A stretch of 64,000 nucleotides of DNA, from positions 4,256,001-4,320,000 of the forward strand of contig OZ240248.1 of assembly GCA_965198235.1 (NCBI GenBank). Direction: 5' to 3'. The notes under the pieces were generated by a model. That model was not told where the DNA came from, searched no databases, and was given only the letters and a program-made list of their open reading frames with translations. The stretch is from Candidatus Poribacteria bacterium (GTDB lineage: Bacteria; Poribacteria; WGA-4E; WGA-3G). Below are positions 3,407 to 60,851 of the stretch, piece by piece (position 1 is the stretch's first letter; every line of letters begins with the position of its first letter). The translations under genes and the position numbers were made by a program.

Positions 3407-4096
3407 TTAATTAGCTTGCTCAACCTGTTCCATAAGCCACTCCACTTTACTCGGATCTTTTATACCCTTTGATGCTTCAACACCAGAACAGAGGTCGATG
3501 CCGTGGGGACGAATTGTCTCAATAGCGGCTTTGACATTCTCCGGACGAATCCCACCTGCGAAGAAAACGGGCAGCGGACTCTCTGCAATGAGCTCAGCAG
3601 CGACATTCCAATCACAGGTTTTTCCTGTACCGCCGTATCTCGGTTTCTCAAGACTTACATCAACGCTATCAAACAGCAGGAAATTCGCGCCAGCATCTCG
3701 GTACGCCAGCATCTCTTCTCGAACAGCCGGGACATCCACATTTTTAGGACTTCCCGCCGGCAAATAGACAGACTTCCAGAACTCACATGCGCTTGTGCGC
3801 TTAAGTTCCTCAACCTGCTGTGGAGACTCCTGTCCAAGGAGTTGAACGGCAAATGGCTGAACCTGCGAGACTATTTCTTGGATGTCGGACGTTGAGCGGT
3901 TATAGAGTAGAATTACGGTAGGAATAGGACTCTCGCTTGCAATTTCGGCGGCTTGAGTCGCGGAGCGTGTCCGTTCAGATACGGCAACATCAACCAACAC
4001 CCCGATGTAATCCGCTCCCGCATCAGCAGCAAGTCGAGCATCATGGATAGAGGTAGTGCCACAGATTTTGACACTGCAGCCGGATTCTTTAGACAT
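3407..4096 (-). CDS. trpF: Phosphoribosylanthranilate isomerase
   Basis: VKICG, GADYIG, YGGTGKTCDW, FAGGIRPENV, GIDLCSGVE motifs. Confidence 0.9.
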   Translation of the reverse strand: MSKESGCSVKICGTTSIHDARLAADAGADYIGVLVDVAVSERTRSATQAAEIASESPIPTVILLYNRSTSDIQEIVSQVQPFAVQLLGQESPQQVEELKRTSACEFWKSVYLPAGSPKNVDVPAVREEMLAYRDAGANFLLFDSVDVSLEKPRYGGTGKTCDWNVAAELIAESPLPVFFAGGIRPENVKAAIETIRPHGIDLCSGVEASKGIKDPSKVEWLMEQVEQAN

Positions 4097-4181
4097 TTTT
4101 TAATTATTCCTTGCGGTTCAGTGACGTGGTTTGAAATGTGGCGGTTTTTCCTTGGAGTCGCCCTCCATTTCATTACGGGCT
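4097..4181 (-). repeat. Hairpin element ending CCGCAAGGAATAATTAAAAA directly at the trpF ATG
   Basis: Shares the 5' hairpin (AGCCCGTAATGAAATGGAGGGCG) and 3' end with copies at 25527, 35284, 48673 and 49167. Confidence 0.75.
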
Positions 4182-4285
4182 TGGTTTTTGAGCGAATAAG
4201 AAGATAGCAAAACTACTGACCGCTGATTACAGCATCATAATTTGGGGGCACTGCCACAATGCCTGACCACTACACCTTACTTAAT

Positions 4286-24254: not shown

Positions 24255-25526
24255 TCAAGAATATAGCCCCCGTAGCACCTCAAAATAATTAGGGAACGTC
24301 TTGCTGACACAGTCTGGATTATTAATCCGAATCCCTTTTGCCTTTAAACCGACGAGCGAAAATGCCATCGCCATACGATGGTCATCGTAGGTATCAATTG
24401 CAGTGGGGGTAATAGGGGCGGGTGAAATTTCGAGTCCGTCTCGGTGTTCAACGACAGGGACACCTAACTTTCGTAGTTCTGTCACCATTGCATGGATTCG
24501 GTCGGTCTCTTGCCAGCGTGTGTGTTCAATGTTTCGGATGGTTACTTTGCTATAGGCGAACGGAGCAATCGCCGCGAGGGTTAGAGCAGTATCCGAAATC
24601 GCCCTCATATCCACATCGATCCCTTTCAACTGGCTCGGTCCAGTAACGGTAATCCCAATGTCAGAAACAGTGACCTGACACCCCATCTGCTCCAAAATAC
24701 GCACAAACTGAACATCGCCTTGCACGGAATCTAAGTGCAAATGTTGGACAGTGACACGTCCACCGGTGAGCGCAGCAGCAGCAAAGAAGTAAGAGGCGTT
24801 GGAGGCATCCGGCTCAATGTTATAGATACGCGGCTGATACCGCTGTCCACCTTCAATCCGAAAATATCGATAGCCTTCCCTGACGACCTGTACACCAAAC
24901 GCCTCCATGACTGCCAATGTGATGTCAATATAGGGCATTTCGCGGTCCCCGACGACCTCAATCTCTACGTCGTTTTTAGCATAGGGTGCGATGAGTAGCA
25001 ACGCCGTCAAGAATTGACTGCTCTTACTGACATCAAGTCGGGTCTTTCCACCCTCCAGTCCGTTTGCTTCGACGATGACAGGAAGATGTCCATTGTCATA
25101 TTGCGAGCGTGCCGAAACTCCAATTTGCGTCAGGGCATCCAGTAAATCGGAGATGGGGCGGCCGTGTCGCATCGGTTCATCGCCATCAATGACGAACCTC
25201 CCATGACCTAACGAAACGTAGGCGGTAAGCGAACGTGAAGTGGTCCCTGAGTTTCCGATATAGAGTTCAGCACTCGAAACCGGAATGTCCCCGCCATTTC
25301 CATGCACATCAAACCTCGCCTGCTTCTCATCAGCGTTAATCTCGATACCGAGCTTCTGCAGAGCATTGCACATATAGCGCGTATCATCGCTGAAGAGAGC
25401 ACCCGTTAGAGTCGAAGCCCCGCGTGCCAACGCGGCAACTAACAACGCGCGGTTGGTATAACTTTTGGAACCCGGCACCACAATCGTGGCATCAAGCGAT
25501 TTACGAATCGGCTGTATCTCAATCAT
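24255..25526 (-). CDS. aroA: 3-phosphoshikimate 1-carboxyvinyltransferase
   Basis: PGSKSYTNR, GNSGT, SSQF, EPDAS, ETDRI, DHRMAM, KTFPNYF. Confidence 0.95.
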   Translation of the reverse strand: MIEIQPIRKSLDATIVVPGSKSYTNRALLVAALARGASTLTGALFSDDTRYMCNALQKLGIEINADEKQARFDVHGNGGDIPVSSAELYIGNSGTTSRSLTAYVSLGHGRFVIDGDEPMRHGRPISDLLDALTQIGVSARSQYDNGHLPVIVEANGLEGGKTRLDVSKSSQFLTALLLIAPYAKNDVEIEVVGDREMPYIDITLAVMEAFGVQVVREGYRYFRIEGGQRYQPRIYNIEPDASNASYFFAAAALTGGRVTVQHLHLDSVQGDVQFVRILEQMGCQVTVSDIGITVTGPSQLKGIDVDMRAISDTALTLAAIAPFAYSKVTIRNIEHTRWQETDRIHAMVTELRKLGVPVVEHRDGLEISPAPITPTAIDTYDDHRMAMAFSLVGLKAKGIRINNPDCVSKTFPNYFEVLRGLYS

Positions 25527-25615
25527 TTTTTAATTTTACCTTGCGGTTCGTTCAGGCGGATTAGGTATTTAACGCGCCGCTCCGTATATCCGTCCTCCAC
25601 TACGTTACGGACTAC
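25527..25615 (-). repeat. GTAG-hairpin element ending CCGCAAGGTAAAATTAAAAA at the aroA ATG
   Basis: GTAGTCCGTAACGTAGTGGAGGACGGA...AACCGCAAGGTAAAATTAAAAAATG. Confidence 0.8.
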
Positions 25616-25633
25616 GCGCTTAGGATTATTGTT

Positions 25634-25679
25634 AAAATCCGTGTTCTCCGCGTTTTCCGCGCACTTCCGCGATTCAGAC
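25634..25679. repeat. 9-bp periodic repeat ending CCGCGATTCAGAC
   Basis: TCCGTG/TCCGCG units at about 9-bp period; related to 62194-62240. Confidence 0.6.
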
Positions 25680-25756
25680 TTTTTTCTCTATATCCGCCTT
25701 CCACTTCGTTACAGGCTGCGTTTTCGCTGTAAATTATTGTATCCTGAAAAACTCGT

Positions 25757-26656
25757 TCATTTAGCAATCCGTGCTTCCGATAATAATTGTCGAAGTTCGT
25801 CCTTCGCAGATTCACTAACGGGCAGCAACGGACCCGTTGTATAGGCATTACAGACTCCTAAAATCTCCAGACACGCCTTCATACCGCTAACGCCCTGTCC
25901 ATAGGTATACATTTTGCCAAGCCGAAGTAGCAACTTCTGTAACCGGTGTACTTCGTCAATATCTCGTGCTTTTGCGGCGTTGTAGAGCGCGACAGATTCT
26001 TTCGGAGCGACGTTTGAAACCGAGACGACACCACCGTCAGCACCGAACAGCACGGCTGCACCGAGCGCAGTATGCGAACCGAGCATGACAGAGAAATCTG
26101 CCTTGTCACCGAGCAAAGCCAAGAGGCTGAGGCAGTTCGTCCAATCGCCGGAACTGTCCTTAATTCCCACAATGTTATCGCAAGTTTCTGCGAGTTGGGC
26201 AACGATATAGGGTTTAATCATTGTTTTGACGGTTGAAGGGATATTGTAAATGAAAACAGGGAGTTCCGTGCTTGCGGCAACATCGTAATAGAACTCGATC
26301 AGGTCCGCATCGTCGGTGGAAGGGTAATAGTAACCGGGTGTCGCGGCAACCGCATCAACGCCGAACTGTTCGGCGACTTCAATGTTTTGGATAACGCGCT
26401 GGGTGCTTGTGTCCATCACACCACAAATAATGGGCACACGACCCCCAATCGCTTTCACAGCGATGTCCATTGCTCGTTCGCGCTCCGTATTCGTCAATGT
26501 GGTAAATTCGCCAGAAGTTCCCAATAGATAGATGCCGTGGACACCGTTGTCAATCAAACGATTGAGTTGATTAATAAACCCGAACTCATCAACGCGCTCT
26601 TTTTCATCAAGTGGCGTTATCGTCGGTGAAAAAATGCCTTCAAATCGGATACTCAT
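25757..26656 (-). CDS. Dihydrodipicolinate synthase/N-acetylneuraminate lyase family protein
   Basis: TITP, GTSGE, IYNIP, GIKDSSG. Confidence 0.88.
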   Translation of the reverse strand: MSIRFEGIFSPTITPLDEKERVDEFGFINQLNRLIDNGVHGIYLLGTSGEFTTLTNTERERAMDIAVKAIGGRVPIICGVMDTSTQRVIQNIEVAEQFGVDAVAATPGYYYPSTDDADLIEFYYDVAASTELPVFIYNIPSTVKTMIKPYIVAQLAETCDNIVGIKDSSGDWTNCLSLLALLGDKADFSVMLGSHTALGAAVLFGADGGVVSVSNVAPKESVALYNAAKARDIDEVHRLQKLLLRLGKMYTYGQGVSGMKACLEILGVCNAYTTGPLLPVSESAKDELRQLLSEARIAK

Positions 26657-34472: not shown

Positions 34473-35282
34473 TTAATCGTCGGCAATGCCCGTAGTGATC
34501 TCGACCTGTTCTTTGTCTGTTACGATCCGTTCAATGTAGAGTGTGAACGTATACGTCTGATGGTTTTCGTATTTTTGAAGGTTTGAAGGAAAGAAACCAC
34601 CCCCTGCCACATCATCTACAATCCAAAATGTCACGTTTCTATTATTCGTGTCAAGCGTCATCGCGCCTGAATAATTTTTTACCAATTCGGGGTCTACATC
34701 ATCTCGAATCCCCAGCAGTTCATTTAGCCTCTTAAGTGAAACGGTCTCATTGTGAAGGCGCACTGTTTTTCCGACATAAGTTTGACCAGCAGCCACAATC
34801 TGTTCAAGTGTCGTGTCGATAACTTCAACATCCGCTTTCGCGGTGTGTTCAGGAACATCAGACCAAATGGTGAAGAAACGCTCTCCGTCTGTAGTTGTGC
34901 CCTCGGAAATATCTTTTATAAGGAGTGTGAAAGTGTAAGTTGTATGACCCCGAATATGTCCGAGATCGCTCCCCATGTAATTTGAATAATAGTGGCGCAG
35001 AAACTTAGCGTTCGAGTCTGTGATGAAAAAACGGACTTTATTGTGATGCGTAAACAATTCTAACGTTGGGGGAACCCCATCAGCACTCGGATAAATTCTG
35101 CCAGCAGCGGTAATCGTAACCTTCTGTCCCTTGTATTTTGAGTTGATGCCGTTTACTGCAACATCGCTGACAATATCAGTGAGTGTGACAGGTTCGACGT
35201 TGAGGGTTTTCGGATGAAATTTCGCACAACCCCCAAATATAAAAATAGCAAAGCAAGCACATAAAGATGTAAAAAGTTTCAT
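34473..35282 (-). CDS. Hypothetical lipoprotein with an internally duplicated domain
   Basis: Lipobox IFGGC; two repeats (YKGQKVTI..TYTFTLLIKDI and YVGKTVRL..TYTFTLYIERI). Confidence 0.65.
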   Translation of the reverse strand: MKLFTSLCACFAIFIFGGCAKFHPKTLNVEPVTLTDIVSDVAVNGINSKYKGQKVTITAAGRIYPSADGVPPTLELFTHHNKVRFFITDSNAKFLRHYYSNYMGSDLGHIRGHTTYTFTLLIKDISEGTTTDGERFFTIWSDVPEHTAKADVEVIDTTLEQIVAAGQTYVGKTVRLHNETVSLKRLNELLGIRDDVDPELVKNYSGAMTLDTNNRNVTFWIVDDVAGGGFFPSNLQKYENHQTYTFTLYIERIVTDKEQVEITTGIADD

Positions 35283-35283
35283 G

Positions 35284-35416
35284 TTTTTTAATTATACCTT
35301 GCGGTTAAATAGCGTGTGTTAGAACTATCAGATGCGTTCCTTAAATCTGAAGAAACACCCAGGCAATACGCAGAAATACCCAAGCAAAAACACCCTGCGC
35401 CGTTGTTGCAGGCTAC
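35284..35416 (-). repeat. GTAG-hairpin element ending CCGCAAGGTATAATTAAAAAA just before an ATG, carrying a low-complexity insert
   Basis: GTAGCCTGCAACAACGGCGCAGG-[GTGTTTTTGCTTGGG...]-...AACCGCAAGGTATAATTAAAAAA-C-ATG. Confidence 0.78.
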
Positions 35417-35509
35417 CGTTTGGTTTAAGAATTATAACGACTTCTATTTAACATGTCAAATTATACGGGAAACTCATCCAATTCGCTCAAAAAACATCAC
35501 TCTATAAAG

Positions 35510-35538
35510 TTGATCTTCATTCCGAATTCTGCTATAAT
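35510..35538 (+). promoter_or_regulatory. Sigma70-type promoter
   Basis: TTGATC-N17-TATAAT with extended -10 TG. Confidence 0.6.
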
Positions 35539-35572: not shown

Positions 35573-37177
35573 GTGATAACTCCACTTCTCCACATGCAAG
35601 CAATTACCAAAGACTTTCCCGGCGTGCGTGCCTTAGATAACGTCTCTTTCGAGGTGCATCCGGGTGAAATTCATGCCTTGTGTGGAGAAAACGGCGCGGG
35701 CAAATCAACATTGATTAAGATTCTCGGCGGCGTTTACCCATCCGGAACCTACGAGGGACAACTGCACATTAATGGAAACGAGCAGCAGTTCCATACCGTG
35801 CGCGACGCAGAACACGCCGGGATCGCCGTTATTCATCAGGAACTGGCGCTTATTCCAGAGATGACGGTCGCCGAGAATATCTATCTCGGCAAAGAGCCGT
35901 GCCAATTTGGCACTATTGACAGGCATCGTCTCTATCACGAAGCGGATGAACTCCTCTCGCAGTTCGGATTGGCGATTCCACTCCATAAACCCGTCCATGA
36001 ACTCGGTATCGGACAACAACAACTCGTAGAAATCGCGAAGGCCTTAGGGCGTAGTTTGCAAGCCCATATTGAGCAGCGACGCAGCTTGCAAGCCAACATC
36101 AACACGTCAAGCAATGCACTGTTACTTGTGCTTGACGAACCGACAGCCGCCTTGACCGAGAGCGAGGTAGACATCCTCCAGCAAATTTTGACCCAACTTC
36201 AAGAAAAGGGTGTAGCCTGTATCTACATCACCCATAAACTCAAGGAAATTTTTCAAATCGCTGACCGCGTGACGGTGCTACGGGACGGCAAAACCGTCGC
36301 AACGCAATCCATTAAATCATCTGAATGCACCGAAGAAATGCTCATTTCACAAATGGTCGGACGCGAGTTAACCGCTCTCTTTCCGAAAAGGCGAACAATC
36401 TCTACCCTTGAAAACGGGTCAAGCCAAGAAGATGTAGCCCTCCGAGTGGAAAACTTAAGCACCTATCCCTCAGAACCGCCGCAGCTTGAAGACATAAATT
36501 TTCAGGTGCGACGCGGGGAAATCCTCGGCATCGCAGGCTTAATGGGCGCAGGAAGGACAGAATTGATTAGTACCATTTTCGGTGCTTACGACGGTAGATG
36601 GAGCGGAGAAATCGTTATAGATGGTGCCGCTGTTCAGATTCACTCCCCGCTCGAGGCAATACAGCACGGAATGGCACTCGTCAGCGAGGATCGGAAACGC
36701 TACGGCCTCCTCTTAGACGTAGATGTCGTTCGGAACATAACGCTTGCGAGTCTCGATTCATCGTCAGACATCACGTCACACGGGATAATCAATGATAACG
36801 AAGCACTTAAAACAAGTGAGTACTACGTAGATTCCCTCCAGATTAAGACAACTTCGCTCGAAGTCCCTGTGAACCACCTCAGCGGTGGAAATCAACAGAA
36901 AGTCGTTCTCGGCAAATGGTTGATGACACATCCGAAGGTGCTATTTCTCGATGAACCGACACGCGGCATTGATGTCGGTGCGAAAGCAGAAATTCACATG
37001 CTGATGGCAAAACTCGCACAAGAGGGTGTCGCAATCGTGTTTGTATCCTCCGAGCTCCCAGAAATCCTTGGTATGAGCGATCGGGTCATGGTCCTACATG
37101 AAGGCAAGATCACGGGTGAATTCATCAACGATAATCTGACACAAGAGGAAATTTTGCGATGTGCAGCCGGAGCCTGA
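35573..37177 (+). CDS. Sugar ABC transporter ATP-binding protein (XylG/RbsA-like)
   Basis: GENGAGKST, IHQEL, LDEPT, GLMGAGRTE, LSGGNQQKV, DEPTRGIDVGAK. Confidence 0.92.
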   Translation: MITPLLHMQAITKDFPGVRALDNVSFEVHPGEIHALCGENGAGKSTLIKILGGVYPSGTYEGQLHINGNEQQFHTVRDAEHAGIAVIHQELALIPEMTVAENIYLGKEPCQFGTIDRHRLYHEADELLSQFGLAIPLHKPVHELGIGQQQLVEIAKALGRSLQAHIEQRRSLQANINTSSNALLLVLDEPTAALTESEVDILQQILTQLQEKGVACIYITHKLKEIFQIADRVTVLRDGKTVATQSIKSSECTEEMLISQMVGRELTALFPKRRTISTLENGSSQEDVALRVENLSTYPSEPPQLEDINFQVRRGEILGIAGLMGAGRTELISTIFGAYDGRWSGEIVIDGAAVQIHSPLEAIQHGMALVSEDRKRYGLLLDVDVVRNITLASLDSSSDITSHGIINDNEALKTSEYYVDSLQIKTTSLEVPVNHLSGGNQQKVVLGKWLMTHPKVLFLDEPTRGIDVGAKAEIHMLMAKLAQEGVAIVFVSSELPEILGMSDRVMVLHEGKITGEFINDNLTQEEILRCAAGA

Positions 37178-46466: not shown

Positions 46467-46486
46467 CGCATAACCGGAGACAAATT

Positions 46487-47707: not shown

Positions 47708-48496
47708 CGGTAAACCGAGCATCCCGCTGAGATAGAAATAAGCTTCCTCGGTATAGCGCGGCAGATTTTCTGGATCTTCAACTTCCAACTCCAACGTCAG
47801 GTCGCCTTGGTAGCCGACTTCTTGGAGCGTTTCGATAATCTGTTTGAGCTTGAGTTCACCACGCCCAATACCGACAGATACGGTGCCGAGATGATCCTTG
47901 AGATGCACTGCATAGATACGGGAACTGAATTGACGAATTGCGGCAAGTGTGTCGACACCCGACGAGTGAAAATGTCCTGTATCTATGCAGACCCCTACTC
48001 TTTCGTCGGGAATAGCGTCTAAAACCGTTTGGAAATCCTCCGGTTGTTCAAGCACATTCCCGTGATGTGGTTCAAGCGTCAACTTGATTTGACTCTCTGC
48101 TGGCATGCGCTGTAACACTTCGCTCACGCAGGAGGCAACCCTGTCCAATGCACCGGGTTCTGTTCTCGGTTGTGCCCCACTCGTTGTCAGGTGTGTTGCA
48201 CCGAGTCCTTCGGCGACCTCAACACATCTCGCGATCGCCCCTGCGCGTGCGTCAACATCGGCACTGTCCTGTCCACCCCATCCGGGTGGATAGAGTCCTG
48301 CACACTTCATACCGGATGCGTCAACCTTTGCCTTCATATCGTCTATGTCAAGAGCATGAGCAGCGTCAACACTCCAGATGAGCGGTCCATGAATTTCCAT
48401 CAGTCGGTAGCCGATCTGTGGTGCGTATTCCAAAGTTGCGGCGACCTCATCTTCGGCGTAGCCGCGGTAACAGATAGAAGCACAAATAATGTCCAT
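47702..48496 (-). CDS. Sugar phosphate isomerase/epimerase
   Basis: LEPH, DTGH, VHLKD, GRGEL, YQGDLTLE; start at 48496 chosen because the upstream extension is repeat-derived. Confidence 0.85.
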   Translation of the reverse strand: MDIICASICYRGYAEDEVAATLEYAPQIGYRLMEIHGPLIWSVDAAHALDIDDMKAKVDASGMKCAGLYPPGWGGQDSADVDARAGAIARCVEVAEGLGATHLTTSGAQPRTEPGALDRVASCVSEVLQRMPAESQIKLTLEPHHGNVLEQPEDFQTVLDAIPDERVGVCIDTGHFHSSGVDTLAAIRQFSSRIYAVHLKDHLGTVSVGIGRGELKLKQIIETLQEVGYQGDLTLELEVEDPENLPRYTEEAYFYLSGMLGLPL

Positions 48497-48533
48497 ACGT
48501 TTCAATATTGGCTTACAAACTTCGCCAATCTCC

Positions 48534-48587
48534 TTTTTAATTGTTCGCAAAGCGTTTAATTTTTTAATTGTTCGCAAAGCGTTTAAT
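48534..48587. repeat. Perfect 27-bp tandem duplication
   Basis: TTTTTAATTGTTCGCAAAGCGTTTAAT x2, at the AATTAAAAA end of a variant GTAG element (48534-48648, minus strand). Confidence 0.9.
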
Positions 48588-48672
48588 GAAGTAATTAGTC
48601 TATTGACGGTTTTCTCTCATATCCGCCTGCGCCGTTGTTGCAGGCTACCGTCTTAAGTTAATTTTCGTAACC

Positions 48673-48761
48673 GTAGCCCGTAACGGAGTGGAGGGCGGAG
48701 TTAAGGAGAGGATGTCTATGATTCAAATTCACGTCGTTTCCCCGCAAGGTAAAATTAAAAA
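48673..48761 (+). repeat. GTAG-hairpin element ending at the yjbQ ATG
   Basis: GTAGCCCGTAACGGAGTGGAGGGCGGA...CCGCAAGGTAAAATTAAAAA-ATG. Confidence 0.8.
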
Positions 48762-49172
48762 ATGATTCAGCAAATCGAAATAACCTTACCCGAATACCCG
48801 CGCGGTTTCCATCTCGTCACAGATGAGATTATGAAATCGCTCGATGAATTGCCGAAAGAAGGTATCCTGCACCTCTTTATTAAGCACACCTCAGCAGGTT
48901 TGACCATCAACGAAAACGCAGACCCGACGGTACGTGAAGACTTTGCCAACAGTTTCGACCGTCTCGTTAAGGAACGCGAACCGTTCTATAAACACACAAT
49001 AGAAGGCGATGACGATATGCCAGCGCATATCAAAGCGTCACTCGTCGGCTTTACCGTCTCCGTCCCAATTACCAACCATCGCCTTAATTTAGGCATATGG
49101 CAGGGCATATACTTGTGCGAATTCCGAAACAGCGGTGGCAGACGAAATCTAACAGCAACACTTTACTTTTAA
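48762..49172 (+). CDS. yjbQ: YjbQ / UPF0047 (secondary thiamine-phosphate synthase-like)
   Basis: HTSAGLTINENADP, EGDDDMPAHIK, LGIWQGIYLCEF. Confidence 0.92.
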   Translation: MIQQIEITLPEYPRGFHLVTDEIMKSLDELPKEGILHLFIKHTSAGLTINENADPTVREDFANSFDRLVKEREPFYKHTIEGDDDMPAHIKASLVGFTVSVPITNHRLNLGIWQGIYLCEFRNSGGRRNLTATLYF

Positions 49173-49254
49173 TTATTCCTTGCGGTTCGGTTAGGTCAAT
49201 TGGGTAAATAACGTCACTCGCCGTATATCCGCCTGCGCCGTTGTGGCAGGCTAC
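49167..49254 (-). repeat. GTAG-hairpin element, inverted, overlapping the yjbQ stop codon
   Basis: Minus strand GTAGCCTGCCACAACGGCGCAGGCGGA...AACCGCAAGGAATAATTAAAA. Confidence 0.8.
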
Positions 49255-49298
49255 GGTCTCGTTGCTATATTATGGGTGGATGTCGTTCCTAAGTAGGA

Positions 49299-50060
49299 TT
49301 ACGACAAAGCACTATAGAGTTCTATATGTCGTTGCAGCACTGCATCTGAATCCGGCGGGTTAATAACCTCAATAGAGACGAACCCGTCGTATCCATCCTG
49401 TGCGAGAAGCGTAAGCGAATCTTTTTCCGTGTCTGGCAAGGGTCCACTGTCGCCGAAGTTGACATGCGCATGCCGCACTTTGCCGCGCAGATGCACATAA
49501 GCGACATTGATCGATTCCCCATGTCGAACATGATGTGCAGCGTGCCAATTCGCAAAGGTGTTCTGTGCCCCTGCTCGGTGTAAAGTCTCGGTTACGTAAC
49601 TGGCGATGAGATTGCCATGTGTCTCTAAACAGAGTGCGACCCCTGCTTCGCCTGCCAAGCCGTCGCAAGCACGAATGCCTGCCGCTTCCCAATCCAAAGT
49701 CTGGGACACCTCAACAGGTGTTTCTGGCACCCGATCCCCGAAAATCCGAATATTCTTTGCGCCCATCGTCTCGGACAAGTCAATATACCGTTTAAGTAGA
49801 TCCACCTGTTCGGCGCGTTTTTGCGCGTCCGGATCTATGAACCTCACCCCAGTCGCAATGCAGGAGAGTTCAATACCGCTATCGGCAAAGCGGCGGCGCG
49901 CATCCTGAAGTTGCTGCGGTGTTGAATCCAACTCCACGCCGTGTCCGTGATCCCATTCCACGCGGAGTTCTAAGTGTTCGTAATTGTAGTGTTTCGCTTT
50001 GTCAATGAGTTCCGCCAGTGTTAACGGCGGACACACAGACGACATAAAACCAAATCGCAT
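49299..50060 (-). CDS. Sugar phosphate isomerase/epimerase
   Basis: LELR, IRIFG, LETH, HAH, YDGFVSIE. Confidence 0.82.
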   Translation of the reverse strand: MRFGFMSSVCPPLTLAELIDKAKHYNYEHLELRVEWDHGHGVELDSTPQQLQDARRRFADSGIELSCIATGVRFIDPDAQKRAEQVDLLKRYIDLSETMGAKNIRIFGDRVPETPVEVSQTLDWEAAGIRACDGLAGEAGVALCLETHGNLIASYVTETLHRAGAQNTFANWHAAHHVRHGESINVAYVHLRGKVRHAHVNFGDSGPLPDTEKDSLTLLAQDGYDGFVSIEVINPPDSDAVLQRHIELYSALS

Positions 50061-50088
50061 GTAAGCCTCCAGTTTTGTTAGGTTAACC

Positions 50089-53000
50089 TCAATTTCCAAT
50101 ATATGAACTGCCGTCTCCCCGCTTTCTAACGTTGATCTTGACGGGCAAACGTCTCGTTAACTCCTGAATGTGGCTGATGAGAAAGATACTTCGTCCTTGC
50201 GTACGGAGTCCTTCCAATGCGGCGATAGCAATGTCAAGCGTTTCGGTATCAAGCGTGCCGAAGCCTTCATCAAGGAAGAGCGAATTGAGTTGCGCGCGTC
50301 CGCGACTCAGATCGGCGAGCGCGAGTGCCAAAGCGAGACTCGTCAGGAACGATTCTCCACCAGAGAGCGTTTCAACAGGACGTTCTTCGTTGGCATTCCA
50401 CCTGTCAATAACAGTCAAATCACCGATCCCCTCAACTTTAAGTTGGTAACGCTCAGAGGTGAGGTAGCGCAACTGCACGTTGGCGATACTGCCCATCTGC
50501 TTGAACATAATCTCCAGAGCAAAATCGCGCAAGTCATTTCTCGGAATCGTGTCATGTAACCGCTGCCAACGCTTCAATTCCTGCTCAGCTGCTCTCATTT
50601 CATCACCAAGCGACTCACGTTTTTCGAGATCGCGTTTCAAGTCTTTGATTTTCTGTTGTTGTGCACCAACTTCCAGTTGTGCTGCTTGGAGTTGTTTTCC
50701 AATTTCTTCTACTTGGGCTTCAATCCGCGCTAATGCCTCCGGATCGAACGGCGTTTCCTCAAACCGGGTTCGCAACTTGGTAATCTCTACCGCAAGCTGC
50801 TGCTTTTCGTTCTCATGCACATCAATTTGGTCGGTGAGTTCTTGGATCTGCGAATCATCTCGGAAAGCGTTGTCGTGTGCTTCTGGTGAATCAAATCCTG
50901 CCTTACTTAACTTCTCAAAGTAAGCATCGCGCGCTATTTCAAGTTTTTCGGCGGATTCTTCATACTGTTCCGCACAATGCCTATGAGTAGTCTGCTTTTG
51001 GGTGAGTAACTTTTGACTGTTCTGCAATTGCTGTTGGGCTGCATCGCGCCTGCTCTCTTTCGACTGCAGTTCCGTCTCTAACGTCTCAATAGCAACGTTA
51101 ATCTCATTCTCCGTTTCCAATCCGTCAGTTTTCTTGCGAACAGTGTCCAAAAATGCTTCTCCTTCGCGTCGATACTCGTCTATTTCGGCTCGCAATTTCT
51201 CGTGATCCCTCTGCAACCTCTCAAAGTTGTGCTGGTCTGTCTCAATTTTAGTATTCAGCAGATTAAGTTTCGCCTTTGCACTATCCCGTTCATCCTTTCG
51301 CTTCTCAACCTCCTCAATCCTCTCGCTAAACTGCTCTTTAGCATTTTCAGGGGAGATGTCGTGAAAAGCCTCCGGTAGCAATTTCCAAAAACGCTTTTCA
51401 GTAGATGTAATGTCAGTTTTCAAGTCCTCAAGAGCATCGCTGATATCCTGCAACTCTTCCTCAGTTTTTTCCAAGGCCTCTTTCTCTCGCTGAATGCCGC
51501 TCTCGCAAGTTTCAAATTGTTGTACTGCCGTTTGGCAAGCATGCGATGCCTGTATATGTGCTTGCTCGGCTTCCCTGAGGTTATCAATAGCAGTATCCGC
51601 CTCCTTAATCTGCTCGACTATCCACTCTGATGAAATATCAGGGTCCGGATATATCTCCTGCCATTCCGCGAGAAACTGTGCTATCTTGTGGTCCTGCAGT
51701 GCCGCTATTTCCGCCTCACAATCTTCAATTTGCTCAGCAGTGTTGCGTCTATTCTGTTGAGTTTGAACCTGTCTCGTTTGCAGAGCCTGCCTCTGCTCCT
51801 GCGCGGCTTGTGCCTCAACTTTCGCACTTTCTAATGCCTTTTCAGCGTCTTGCAGTCGTTCCTCGTCTTCAGGTTCTACGGCATCAGCGGACGGATGCTC
51901 CGTTGCCCCACACACCAAGCAGGGTTCTCCGGCGTGAAGATGCTGCCGAAGTTGATTGATTGGGTTTGCCAAAAGCGCGGATTCTCGCGCCGATTCACAA
52001 CGTTCAACTGCTTCTTCCAGATGCTGAGATACCTGCGCTTGGCTCGTCAATTCGGCTTCGATCTGTCCAAGTTCTGTGTCCAACGCTGCTTTTGCCTTGT
52101 TTAATTCGCGCAAATGATTTTTGGAGTTCGTCAAGTCATCTGCCGCTGATTCAATTTTTTGCGCAATAGGCTGTGCTTTGGTAGCCTTCTGTTTTCGGGT
52201 ATTCCATTCTTCCCGAGTGCCAGTTGCCAGCAGTGCATTCAGTTCAGCAGAGGCTTCTTCTAACGTAGCCTCTGCATCTGTCTTTTCCGCAAGCCCTTCT
52301 TCAAGAGTCTTAGACAATTTTTCAATTCCACGTTTTGACGACGACACTTTCTTTTCGTGCTGCGCTTTGTTCGCCGAAACCGTTTCCAACTGCTTTTCTT
52401 GTGAACCGAGTTCTACCAAAAGACCTGTTGCTTGGTTGAGGCAGTGTTGTCGATTTGACGGAAGCGGATTCTCATCTAAGAAGGTTTGCGCCGACTGAAT
52501 CTGTTCTTCCAACTGAGCTCGCTCAGTTTGTCTGCTGTCCAATTGGCTTGACAACCCTTTAATCTGTTCACCCAAGTTTTCCAAATCTGGAGTCCGTTTC
52601 CCTGCCTCCGTAAATCGATTTTCTGCTCGTTCTACATCTGCTTTTGCTTCTGCGTAGACCGCTACTTTCCGATCGCGTTCAGTGGATGCGGTCTGATACG
52701 CCTCCTCTTTTTTATCAAAATCGGCTTGGTCGGTTTTAACTTGCGCCTCTGCATCCGTTTTCTCCGTCGTTGCTACACGAAGTAACTCCTCTGCATCTTT
52801 CAGCTCCGATTTCGCGATATCGGACACCTGTTTTTCAGGACGCAGACCATTCGCACGCTGCGCTCGTTCCCGTTCTTCCTCAAGATTATCAATCTCCGTT
52901 TGCTGCTCCGAGAGTTCCGTTTGACGTTTTTCTGAGGACTGGAGTCTTGCAAAATCCTCTTTCCGCTTCGCTTCCCGCTCCATCTCCTCCTGAATCTCCT

Positions 53001-53685
53001 TGCTTTGTAGCACTAATGCCGCAACTTCCTGTTGTTGTCTATCAAGTTCCGCCTCAGCTTGTGTGAGTTGTTCGCGAGACACTTCGGGAATAGTGCCAAG
53101 TTTTTGCAAAACCTCCTGATGTTCAGCCTCAACCGCATTCACCTTGTCATTTAACGCTTGTCTGAGTATGTCATAGATGTGGATGCCCGCGGTCGCCTCC
53201 AAAATCGTCCGCCTATCTTCTCTGCTTGCTTTCAAAAACGCAGCGAACTCACCTTGCGCCAACATGACAGAGCGTCTGAAAGCATTGAAATCAAGCCCTA
53301 AGATAGATTCTACTTCTTGAGCAACCTTAGTTGTGATTAAGTCCCCAGATTCATCATACAATCGACCTTGAGGAGAACCTTTACCACTAATAGACCAAGT
53401 GGCATGATAACGCTTGCTATTTGCCTCAAAATAAACTTCAGCGAACCCCTCGGTTTCTCCATGACTGATCAGATGCCGCGGATGTTGGTTTTTCGTTCCA
53501 TGCAAGCGCGGCGTTTTTCCGTAGAGGGCGACGCAAATTGCGTCCAACAAAGTCGTTTTCCCGGCACCGGTTGGGCCGGTAATTGCTACAAGTGATGCAT
53601 CACCCAATGGCGAACTTTCAAAGTCCAGATCAACTTCCTGACGAAAACTATTCAGATTTTTAAGCTTCAGTTTACATAATTTCAT
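50089..53685 (-). CDS. sbcC: SbcC (SMC-like ATPase of the SbcCD nuclease)
   Basis: GPTGAGKT, LAQGEF, coiled coil with CLVCG zinc hook, LSGGE, LFLDEGFGTLD, ISH. Confidence 0.93.
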   Translation of the reverse strand: MKLCKLKLKNLNSFRQEVDLDFESSPLGDASLVAITGPTGAGKTTLLDAICVALYGKTPRLHGTKNQHPRHLISHGETEGFAEVYFEANSKRYHATWSISGKGSPQGRLYDESGDLITTKVAQEVESILGLDFNAFRRSVMLAQGEFAAFLKASREDRRTILEATAGIHIYDILRQALNDKVNAVEAEHQEVLQKLGTIPEVSREQLTQAEAELDRQQQEVAALVLQSKEIQEEMEREAKRKEDFARLQSSEKRQTELSEQQTEIDNLEEERERAQRANGLRPEKQVSDIAKSELKDAEELLRVATTEKTDAEAQVKTDQADFDKKEEAYQTASTERDRKVAVYAEAKADVERAENRFTEAGKRTPDLENLGEQIKGLSSQLDSRQTERAQLEEQIQSAQTFLDENPLPSNRQHCLNQATGLLVELGSQEKQLETVSANKAQHEKKVSSSKRGIEKLSKTLEEGLAEKTDAEATLEEASAELNALLATGTREEWNTRKQKATKAQPIAQKIESAADDLTNSKNHLRELNKAKAALDTELGQIEAELTSQAQVSQHLEEAVERCESARESALLANPINQLRQHLHAGEPCLVCGATEHPSADAVEPEDEERLQDAEKALESAKVEAQAAQEQRQALQTRQVQTQQNRRNTAEQIEDCEAEIAALQDHKIAQFLAEWQEIYPDPDISSEWIVEQIKEADTAIDNLREAEQAHIQASHACQTAVQQFETCESGIQREKEALEKTEEELQDISDALEDLKTDITSTEKRFWKLLPEAFHDISPENAKEQFSERIEEVEKRKDERDSAKAKLNLLNTKIETDQHNFERLQRDHEKLRAEIDEYRREGEAFLDTVRKKTDGLETENEINVAIETLETELQSKESRRDAAQQQLQNSQKLLTQKQTTHRHCAEQYEESAEKLEIARDAYFEKLSKAGFDSPEAHDNAFRDDSQIQELTDQIDVHENEKQQLAVEITKLRTRFEETPFDPEALARIEAQVEEIGKQLQAAQLEVGAQQQKIKDLKRDLEKRESLGDEMRAAEQELKRWQRLHDTIPRNDLRDFALEIMFKQMGSIANVQLRYLTSERYQLKVEGIGDLTVIDRWNANEERPVETLSGGESFLTSLALALALADLSRGRAQLNSLFLDEGFGTLDTETLDIAIAALEGLRTQGRSIFLISHIQELTRRLPVKINVRKRGDGSSYIGN

Positions 53686-60820: not shown

Positions 60821-60851
60821 TAACACATCATCAAAAAGAAGGAATCCCTCT

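Follow-up and report, generated by a model that had tools for sequence, protein, structure and literature searches.

A start-codon-abutting repeat family in a Poribacteria genome as a candidate portable translation start region

Translation initiation regions are usually treated as gene-specific and slowly evolving, and a locus at which several unrelated genes carry nearly the same bases ahead of their start codons raises the question of what those bases are and how they came to be there. Such a locus is found in the 64,000-nt stretch of Candidatus Poribacteria DNA analysed here (assembly GCA_965198235.1, contig OZ240248.1; C1:4256001-4320000 of the genome designated G000), referred to below as the window. 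An initial annotation, made from the sequence alone, described a dispersed hairpin element whose 3' end sits at the start codons of trpF, aroA, yjbQ and a lipoprotein gene, and offered two explanations: a mobile element that either seeks out translation initiation regions or provides them, or a spreading cis-regulatory RNA. The element belongs to a dispersed repeat family of ~90 bases and ~240 copies in this one sponge-symbiont genome (5.17 Mb, 48% GC, two contigs, 96.3% complete), and it makes up the final 20-40 nt ahead of the start codons of over 100 unrelated genes, the core biosynthetic genes trpF and aroA among them. Sponge metagenome and metatranscriptome runs contain the window sequence, and the closest relatives of its AroA protein come from Candidatus Poribacteria metagenome-assembled genomes (MAGs), at 75% and 72% identity. 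The interpretation favoured below, held with slightly better than even confidence and drawn from sequence comparison, is that the family is a lineage-specific mosaic repeat carrying a portable translation start region that is largely independent of the Shine-Dalgarno (SD) sequence.

All five window copies were recovered where the initial annotation had placed them by an exact scan with the motif CCGCAAGGWAWAATTAAAA, which occurs five times in the window against a mean of 0.04 in shuffled sequence (0/100 shuffles reach five). Genome-wide, this motif has 90 exact matches, and 241 when up to three mismatches are allowed. The core CCGCAAGG is present 417 times, compared with ~133 expected from composition, and 240 of these 417 cores are followed by 12 bases of which at least 10 are A/T; these 240 sequences, core plus A/T-rich tail, are the copies counted below. 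A profile search of the genome returned 243 copies, 186 of them full-length, 32 consisting of the 3' part only and two of the 5' part only.

A copy was scored as flush when its core is followed, at 9-14 nt, by a start codon that opens an open reading frame (ORF) of 60 aa or more. Flush copies number 116/240, compared with 4.4% of random intergenic and 7.8% of random genomic positions put through the same test, and the proximity to start codons claimed for the window copies thus holds across the genome. The spacing is narrow, with 83 flush copies at 12 nt after the core, 15 at 13, 8 at 14, 6 at 11, 3 at 10 and one at 9, and the start codons comprise 100 ATG, 10 TTG and six GTG. Another 42 copies are followed by a start at a distance of 16-60 nt, in about a dozen cases in the arrangement tail, AGGAG, ATG, and 24/240 are followed by another copy, in head-to-tail arrays with a period of 85. 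The ATG lies outside the repeat unit and is not part of the element, because tandem junctions lack it. BLASTP sorts the proteins encoded behind the 116 flush copies into 94 clusters, none with more than six members, so the downstream genes are unrelated; by Pfam and cluster membership they are also functionally miscellaneous. Orientation is biased as well: in 161/240 copies both neighbouring genes run in the same direction as the element and 35/240 copies are antisense to both, 96/116 flush copies come after a co-oriented gene, and divergent copy pairs are found only where two genes diverge. In other Poribacteria MAGs, 46/82 copies abut a start.

The four window ATGs are genuine starts, and all four are conserved among orthologues in the relatives of G000 within its genus (the other G-numbers below). 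The trpF start position is the same in 27/29 genus orthologues, with the other two starting six codons upstream, the aroA start is conserved in 30/30 genus genomes, and the syntenic genomes retain the yjbQ and lipoprotein starts as well as those of the genes near 50061, 53685, 60850 and 63763. Exact motif matches are present in 24/24 further genus genomes searched, at 2-289 each, the high counts of 127-289 (G000: 90) occurring in genomes whose TrpF is 89-93% identical to that of G000; outside the genus, a single match was found in 16 genomes of sister families of the same order. Among assembled genome contigs, 78 of the 80 loci listed belong to Poribacteria or to unnamed MAGs.

In front of these starts, orthologous sequences turn over rapidly, and comparison of orthologous upstream regions, one of the checks proposed in the initial annotation, found the copies to be polymorphic among relatives. 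At trpF, 10 of the 29 genomes have long elements, with three or more hairpin types among them, 13 have a shorter element (GTAGGAGGGATTTGTAATCCC...) with a related tail, and the rest comprise two with a unit of a sister repeat family described below, one degenerate copy, one tail alone after the upstream stop and the two shifted starts. At aroA, the ATG overlaps the TGA of the upstream gene (ATGA) in 22/30 genus genomes, with a GGAG inside that gene, and in 8/30 what ends at the ATG is an element, one of its variants or a 3' fragment of 35-39 nt. At yjbQ, the element is flush to the start in the window, and four relatives instead carry a leader and a GGAG SD together with a TATAAT-like box. The reverse distribution is seen near 50061, where the window and G004 read AAAACTGGAGGCTTAC-ATG and G006, G014, G018 and G024 carry elements flush to the ATG and no SD, and near 53685, where the window reads CGGAGGAACA-ATG and G006, G014 and G024 have the element flush. 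At these four genes, then, the element allele stands where relatives carry an SD leader or an ATGA overlap. The junctions are of several kinds: near 50061 and 53685, 8-11 nt are replaced and there is no duplication; near 60850, a full element in G006 separates a pre-existing tail-only sequence AAGGAAAATTAAAAAA from the ATG, with the tail duplicated, and G018 and G024 have the tail only; and an aroA fragment in G012 has AAAT on both sides, a possible duplication.

Two further sites in the window touch on this turnover. In the interval 25526-25760, the upstream gene whose end overlaps aroA elsewhere is no longer adjacent in G000, G045, G007 and G017, so a rearrangement breakpoint coincides with the element. 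At 46467-46476, only ~8-20 nt separate two genes that in five relatives are ~200 nt apart with one or two elements between them, an antisense copy's tail abutting the TAA stop of the left gene; from this comparison the window appears to have lost the whole intergenic region by deletion.

The placement of the element was compared with the ribosome-binding site (RBS) usage of the genome. In ~2100 well-delimited, repeat-free ordinary genes, the peak for GGAG is at -11 and that for AAGG at -13; the 16S rRNA 3' end reads ...GGATCACCTCCTTTCT (also written ...CACCTCCTTTCT). The AAGG of the element is at -16, 3 nt beyond the genome's usual position, and is absent in variants. A sister repeat family, found genome-wide in G000 and at the trpF fronts of G007 and G017, has a hairpin whose conserved loop (GAAACGAAGTGGA) is that of the element, after which come CCCAGGAG(C)AATAAATTAAAAA and an ATG; its AGGAG is at about -19, and the distance from A/T-rich tail to ATG is the same in both families. 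Since this distance is constant and the SD-like motif is not, the constant feature is the hairpin with its A/T-rich run rather than an SD. The sister family probably also explains a secondary GGAG bump at -20 to -18 in the ordinary-gene profile. Starts of ORFs of at least 60 aa lying within 6 nt downstream of ATTAAAA number 165 without the CCGCAAGG core and 93 with it, and many of the 165 belong to the sister family. The frequency of SD motifs in a -16 to -4 window was dropped as evidence; the count is confounded because the element's own AGGA falls inside that window and the comparison set includes wrong starts.

The alignment consensus of the element is ACCGTAGCCTGAAACGAAGTGGAGGGCGGATCTACGGAAAGGAACGTTAAATTCCAAACCCACCTGACCGAACCGCAAGGAAAATTTAAAAAA, and its layout is a 5' hairpin, a variable middle, a mini-hairpin and 12 A/T-rich bases. 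Most copies have their head 63-66 nt ahead of the core, and lesser clusters occur near 86 and 108. An imperfect palindrome preceded by GTAG or GTAA is found in 90/163 full-length copies (GTAG 69/163, GTAA 21/163), and the initial description of the head as usually GTAG was therefore somewhat generous. The 5' stem is free in sequence and conserved in pairing, with compensatory variants GCCC/GGGC, GCTT/AAGC, GCCT/AGGC, GCTC/GAGC and GCAC/GTGC and a loop G-W-A-A-Y-G-N-A-R-Y-G-G-A. Covariation is clear at pair 8-24 (C-G 115, T-A 32, A-T 4), pair 9-23 (C-G 77, T-A 72) and the inner loop pair 14-18 (C-G 111, T-A 37); pairs 8-24, 9-23, 14-18 and 13-19 exceed 1000/1000 column shuffles, a control that relatedness among copies can inflate. 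The loop motif has 411 matches in the genome, so the 5' hairpin is a module shared with other repeats. The hairpin tip, columns 13-19, reads A-C-(GNA)-G-T with a covarying C-G/T-A closing pair. GNA mini-hairpins of the d(GCGAAGC) type are very stable in DNA, and the tip resembles that type; it would fit structure in single-stranded DNA as well as in RNA.

The middle falls into two subfamilies, ...CCTGACCGAA and ...CGTCGTTTAA, and may hold T/G-rich or GGGGAAACACCCAAGCAAAAACACCCAC inserts; these optional modules account for the length range of 85-135 bp originally reported. The T/G-rich inserts are minisatellite-like (GGGTGTTTTTGCTTGGGTATTTCTGCGTATTGC...), have repeated sub-units, stand after the 5' hairpin (e.g., window 35340-35395, - strand) and add length in steps of ~21-22 nt. 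The 3' module is the best conserved part of the element. Its variants have CGC-CTA-GCG, CGC-CTT-GCG or CGC-TTT-GCG in place of CC-GCAA-GG, and these CGC-NNN-GCG forms keep the mini-hairpin and the A/T-rich 12-mer and lose the AAGG. The 21-nt tail module CCGCAAGGTAAAATTAAAAAA is also found by itself in two or three tandem copies (in G014 near window site 56271, and at loci L185 and L187), and the tail can therefore duplicate independently of the hairpin.

Minimum free energy (MFE) folds leave the bases immediately 5' of the start codon unpaired in 5/5 window copies, and pair part of the A/T-rich tail in 2/5. Only some copies are predicted to form a second stem (GGCG.../...CGCC or CGG/CCG), and RNAalifold on the mixed alignment gave the 2-bp mini-hairpin as its sole prediction. 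A long-range pairing of GCGG in columns 25-28 with CCGC in columns 72-75, complementary in 76-99% of copies, was rejected as unsupported because there is almost no variation on either side and the pairing is lost in the CGC-CTA-GCG variant. The asymmetry of G.T and A.C combinations, used as an indicator of the folding strand, is 22 versus 34 over six pairs, and was discarded as uninformative, one misaligned column dominating the count.

The window copies and associated modules are collected in Table 1. ORF lists place the A-run flush to three of the four ATGs, with one C intervening at the lipoprotein gene, and both the fifth copy, overlapping the yjbQ stop at 49254-49167 (-), and the variant upstream of the 48496 gene are as first noted, the latter resolving into two variant tails with an inverted head module.

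Table 1. Copies, partial copies and a promoter-like site of the window (window positions; the fourth column gives exact matches to CCGCAAGGWAWAATTAAAA)
Feature	Position	Strand	Exact match	Gene behind	Details
Copy 1, trpF front	4097..4184	-	4098-4116 (-)	3407-4096 (-), PRAI (trpF); ATG at 4096-4094	nhmmer 4182-4097, 52 bits; head CCAA, not GTAG; hairpin GCCCGTAATGAAATGGAGGGC; subfamily II middle; tail CCGCAAGGAATAATTAAAAA
Copy 2, aroA front	25527..25615	-	25528-25546 (-)	24255-25526 (-), EPSP_synthase (aroA); ATG at 25526	nhmmer 74.8 bits; GTAG at 25615-25612; hairpin TCCGTAACGTAGTGGAGGACGG; tail CCGCAAGGTAAAATTAAAAA
Head-only module	25672..25720	-			upstream of copy 2; hairpin GCCTGTAACGAAGTGGAAGGCGG, no tail; profile positions 3-51
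Copy 3, lipoprotein front, 133 nt	35284..35416	-	35286-35304 (-)	34473-35282 (-), no Pfam match, N terminus a lipoprotein-like signal peptide; ATG at 35282	GTAG at 35416-35413; hairpin CCTGCAACAACGGCGCAGG; T/G-rich insert; tail CCGCAAGGTATAATTAAAAAA, C, then ATG
Sigma-70 consensus promoter-like site	35431..35459	-			TTGACA-17-TATAAT, 12/12 matches
Two tandem 27-nt variant tails	~48524..48577	-			AAACGCTTTGCGAACAATTAAAAA; upstream of 48496 start; mini-hairpin CGC-TTT-GCG instead of CC-GCAA-GG
Element head and middle	48582..48649	-			GGTAGCCTGCAACAACGGCGCAGGCGGATA...; profile positions 3-72; directed at 47702-48496 gene, divergent from copy 4
Copy 4, yjbQ front, 89 nt	48673..48761	+	48742-48760 (+)	48762-49172 (+), UPF0047 (yjbQ family); ATG at 48762	60.2 bits; GTAG at 48673-48676; hairpin CCCGTAACGGAGTGGAGGGCGG; tail CCGCAAGGTAAAATTAAAAA
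Copy 5, 88 nt	49167..49254	-	49167-49185 (-)	none directly in front	after stop of 49299-50099 (-), a xylose-isomerase-like TIM-barrel gene; tail overlaps opposite-strand yjbQ stop codon; site occupied also in G006, G014, G018, G024

The sequence around the copies bears on whether the element is transcribed or is a promoter. A gap of 14 nt separates the perfect sigma-70 site listed in Table 1 from the GTAG of copy 3 downstream, and the TATAAT of this site and its flank are conserved in G006, G018 and G024; copy 3 therefore lies in a predicted 5' untranslated region (UTR). Promoter-like boxes are found upstream of other first-gene copies too. A further promoter-like site nearby, TTGATC-17-TATAAT with a TG (35510-35538, + strand, 10/12 matches), faces the divergent ABC-transporter ATPase-like gene 35573-37177. 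A -35 box of at least 4/6 matches accompanies only 15/240 copies, and only 8/240 pass sigma-70 two-hexamer criteria in a sequence test. Given these few -35 boxes, the co-oriented upstream genes and the promoter of copy 3, the most probable reading is that the element is transcribed, either in the 5' UTR or as spacer RNA between cistrons. In RNA libraries, one loose contig end coincides with the gene start after the copy at C1:2265695, the raised depth and many 'joints' over the element are as expected of a multi-copy repeat, and a contig starting exactly at 49167 can be explained by repeat-induced assembly breaks.

The picture that best fits these observations is of a modular intergenic repeat of one Poribacteria genus that has multiplied to hundreds of copies and is presumably mobile. 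Its copies would be transcribed within mRNAs, in the 5' UTR or between cistrons, with a REP-like 5' module, often headed by GTAG or GTAA, whose hairpin may stabilise or delimit the RNA, and a 3' module (small GC hairpin and 12 A/T-rich bases) that would serve as the translation initiation region of the downstream gene. On arrival, an element would displace a native SD leader or an overlapping stop/start junction, and initiation would then proceed through an unstructured A/U-rich leader, helped at most by a weak and over-distant SD-like AAGG. A bolder version, distinctly doubtful at present, would make the element a self-propagating cassette that homes just 5' of start codons or onto earlier tails and converts SD-led or translationally coupled genes into genes started from a common leader of hairpin and A/U-rich bases, or into leaderless genes whose tail acts as a -10 box; together with the sister family (CCCAGGAG...AATAAATTAAAAA-ATG), it would have rewritten the initiation region of ~5-6% of the genes in these symbionts.

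Several observations weigh against the view that the repeat carries a portable start region. Neither a transposase for the element nor a reverse transcriptase turned up, and the junctions yielded no clean target-site duplication. Its AAGG, or the AGGAG of the sister family, may still act as a distant SD. Fold energies of the whole element do not differ from those of shuffled sequences (z -0.77 to +0.24, five window copies). Contigs of RNA libraries do extend from elements into downstream coding sequence, and these contigs, in which strand and starts are not visible and DNA is possibly present, are the sole RNA evidence. In 28/240 copies the tail lies no more than 30 nt from the stop codon of a convergent gene, and 30/240 copies fit no positional class and have no obvious partner. 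The tail is fully A/T in 70/116 gene-front copies and 29/58 others (p=0.2), an equal purity which suggests that it belongs to the element and is not kept solely by selection on translation; its conservation may serve propagation instead. Finally, gain and loss are read from the distribution of alleles alone.

The chief rival takes the 3' module to be a portable leaderless promoter, in which W-A-W-A-A-T in the tail would form a -10 box at -12 to -7 and transcription would begin on the start codon itself. The geometry has its attractions: in GG-TATAAT-TAAAAA-ATG the distance from the hexamer to the A is exactly 6 nt, the two key bases of the -10 box are near-invariant (A in 233/240, T in 233/240), TATAAT is matched at four or more of six positions in 133/240 copies, and the start spacing (83/116 at one value) is as sharp as leaderless initiation needs. 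The AAGG is dispensable in variants that keep CATAAT, the window yjbQ lacks the ancestral TATAAT-like box and leader, and a scan calls TTCACG-16-TAAAAT and TTGACC-16-AATAAT at two copies. The scarcity of -35 boxes, the co-oriented gene behind which most flush copies lie and the 5' UTR position imposed on copy 3 by its upstream consensus promoter nevertheless argue the other way, as do the 16/116 flush starts that are TTG or GTG, the RNA-library contigs that span the element into coding sequence (weak evidence) and the rarity of TATAAT at -12 outside the repeat (6 of ~2100 genes), and the leaderless promoter is judged rather unlikely. Much of the same material could also be explained, though this is improbable, by a selfish repeat inserting at A-runs or at earlier tails, since A-rich targets of this sort are located ahead of ATG, ahead of AAAGGAG and behind TAA stops; the flush position would be a by-product and the tail merely tolerated. 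The G006 element lodged between an older tail-only sequence and the ATG, the head-to-tail arrays of period 85 and tandem 21-nt tails, the AAAT on both sides of the G012 aroA fragment, the 28 tails that abut convergent stops, a native yjbQ leader that already ends in AATTAAAAA, a tail conserved independently of context and the 32 3'-only against two 5'-only copies are all in keeping with it. However, the element-free alleles near 50061 and 53685 have no A-run or tail at the junction, and as the SD is gone from the element alleles these are not simple insertions; the downstream ORFs are intact and conserved, so the tail at least permits translation; and no enzyme is known for it, and RVT_1 is absent from the genome.

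The second explanation of the initial annotation, restated as a structured cis-regulatory leader (a protein or small RNA site, or an RNA thermometer) forming a repeat-spread regulon, is quite improbable. The covarying stems, the loop conserved in 411 matches and the mini-hairpin retained near the start through compensatory variants would suit it, and Neisseria REP2, as described in PMC3184786, marks co-regulated genes. Against this, the proposed Rfam test gave tRNA alone in the whole window, both at gathering score and at E<=5, and nothing in 48400-49400 at E<=10, so the element itself has no match; fold stability is not above that of shuffles, the tail is predicted to be open rather than sequestered, the downstream genes are miscellaneous and many copies do not front genes. 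Binding of CsrA to GGA motifs was dropped as a candidate, no CsrA homologue having been found in the genome. Of the two explanations originally offered, the mobile element fits the data, by virtue of its polymorphic copies, 2-289 per genome, and the SD leaders they replace, with no mobilising enzyme found, and its copies may either target start codons or be kept there by selection; the regulatory RNA, apart from its covarying 5' hairpin, receives little support. The suggested link to a RAYT or an IS200/IS605 TnpA was looked for and not found, and a classical REP/REPIN mobilised by RAYT (Y1 transposase) is hardly credible here. The palindrome headed by GTAG/GTAA and the presence in G000 of three RAYT-like and three IS200/IS605-like Y1_Tnp genes speak for it, but the RAYT-like genes (G000:C1:606918-607262, 1898775-1899119 and 3853757-3854101; L084-L086) are flanked by palindromes of their own, GCACTCCGCTGGAGTGC, CACGCCTACGGCGTG or GCACCCCTACGGGGTGC, beside CTATAGACAT, and the flanks of all six genes differ from the element. 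Copies of the element are also single and directional, not inverted pairs. In 35 Y1_Tnp loci (110 kb) from 31 genus genomes, the element lies beside the transposase gene at none; the three distinct matches in these loci are near locus ends, ~1.2 kb or more from the gene. The Y1_Tnp genes at 119838, 4381488 and 4792784 have a second ORF after them, as in IS200/IS605. A SINE-like spread, prompted by the A-rich 3' end and the 3'-only fragments, was rejected, as the RVT_1 reverse transcriptase has no match in G000.

A separate REP-like family, GT(A/G)GGAGGGGTTTGTAACCCCGA, is present in 76 copies in G000, and its GTAG sometimes provides the TAG stop of the upstream gene. In other species of the genus, the hairpin of this family is fused to a tail as GTAGGAGGGATTTGTAATCCCGACCCTATCCTAC-GCAAGGTAAAATTAAAAA-ATG. 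In the element itself, only 4/156 copies have a head whose TAG or TAA closes an open frame of 80 codons or more that comes from upstream.

The SD or ATGA alleles of relatives provide natural allelic pairs for the study of SD-independent initiation in an SD-using bacterium. The family bears on how operon coupling is broken and rebuilt, and on how a repeat may spread with positional precision and no recognisable transposase. When Poribacteria MAGs are annotated, the tail is a marker of true start codons, and the repeats will fragment assemblies and inflate metatranscriptome depth. The features that most deserve attention are the flush placement at start codons and the alleles that carry the element where others have the SD.

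A literature search, with subscription journals outside its coverage, found no publication on Poribacteria repeats, and the element is best placed by comparison with known kinds of repeat. REP elements have a GT(A/G)G head and an imperfect palindrome, occur in many copies, form mosaics with other motifs, lie between cistrons, are linked to RAYT and are found in inverted pairs. Such REP, BIME and REPIN sequences and their RAYT transposases are reportedly the subject of Nunvar 2010 and of Bertels and Rainey 2011. The Poribacteria element shares the GT(A/G)G-type head, the palindrome, the high copy number, the mosaicism and the intercistronic position, but has neither a RAYT association nor inverted pairs, and it possesses a long directional 3' module ending at starts. 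Unlike a MITE (miniature inverted-repeat transposable element), it lacks terminal inverted repeats, the 5' end of the consensus, CCGTAGCC..., and its 3' end, ...AATTAAAAA, not being complementary. Putative mobile promoters, near-identical upstream sequences on non-homologous genes (Nijveen, Matus-Garcia and van Passel 2012, PMC3575422), resemble it in that non-homologous genes of one genome share upstream sequence; that survey compared -150 to -50 relative to the start codon (PMC3575422), whereas the conserved part of the element spans -1 to about -40, outside the surveyed region. The MIRU, as summarised in PMC3184786 from Supply et al. 1997, is 40-100 bp long, intercistronic in operons and found in tandem arrays, and holds ORFs that overlap the ends of flanking genes. 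The element is likewise intercistronic, arrayed in tandem and in contact with adjacent genes at its ends, but unlike the MIRU in that account it has no conserved small coupling ORF: the median open frame before the TAA of the tail is 14 codons, an ORF of at least 10 codons is present in 28/98, and a MIRU-like coupling ORF was rejected on this ground.

The closest known kind is the gene-front repeats represented by Neisseria REP2 and the Borrelia plasmid IR-A/IR-B, compared here by description rather than by sequence. In the account of Delihas 2011 (PMC3184786), these are ~100-180 bp long, have 5' stem-loops and no terminal inverted repeats, and lie directly upstream of unrelated ORFs, to which they contribute a 5' UTR and translation start; REP2 is described there as having its own promoter, RBS and ATG, in ~26 copies. 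The Poribacteria element is like them in its position upstream of unrelated ORFs, its covarying 5' stem-loop and its lack of terminal inverted repeats. It differs from REP2, as portrayed in that source, in being present in ~240 copies rather than ~26, in having, as a class, neither a sigma-70 -35 box nor a canonical SD where REP2 has a promoter and RBS, and in being mostly intercistronic, with the ATG left to the gene that it fronts.

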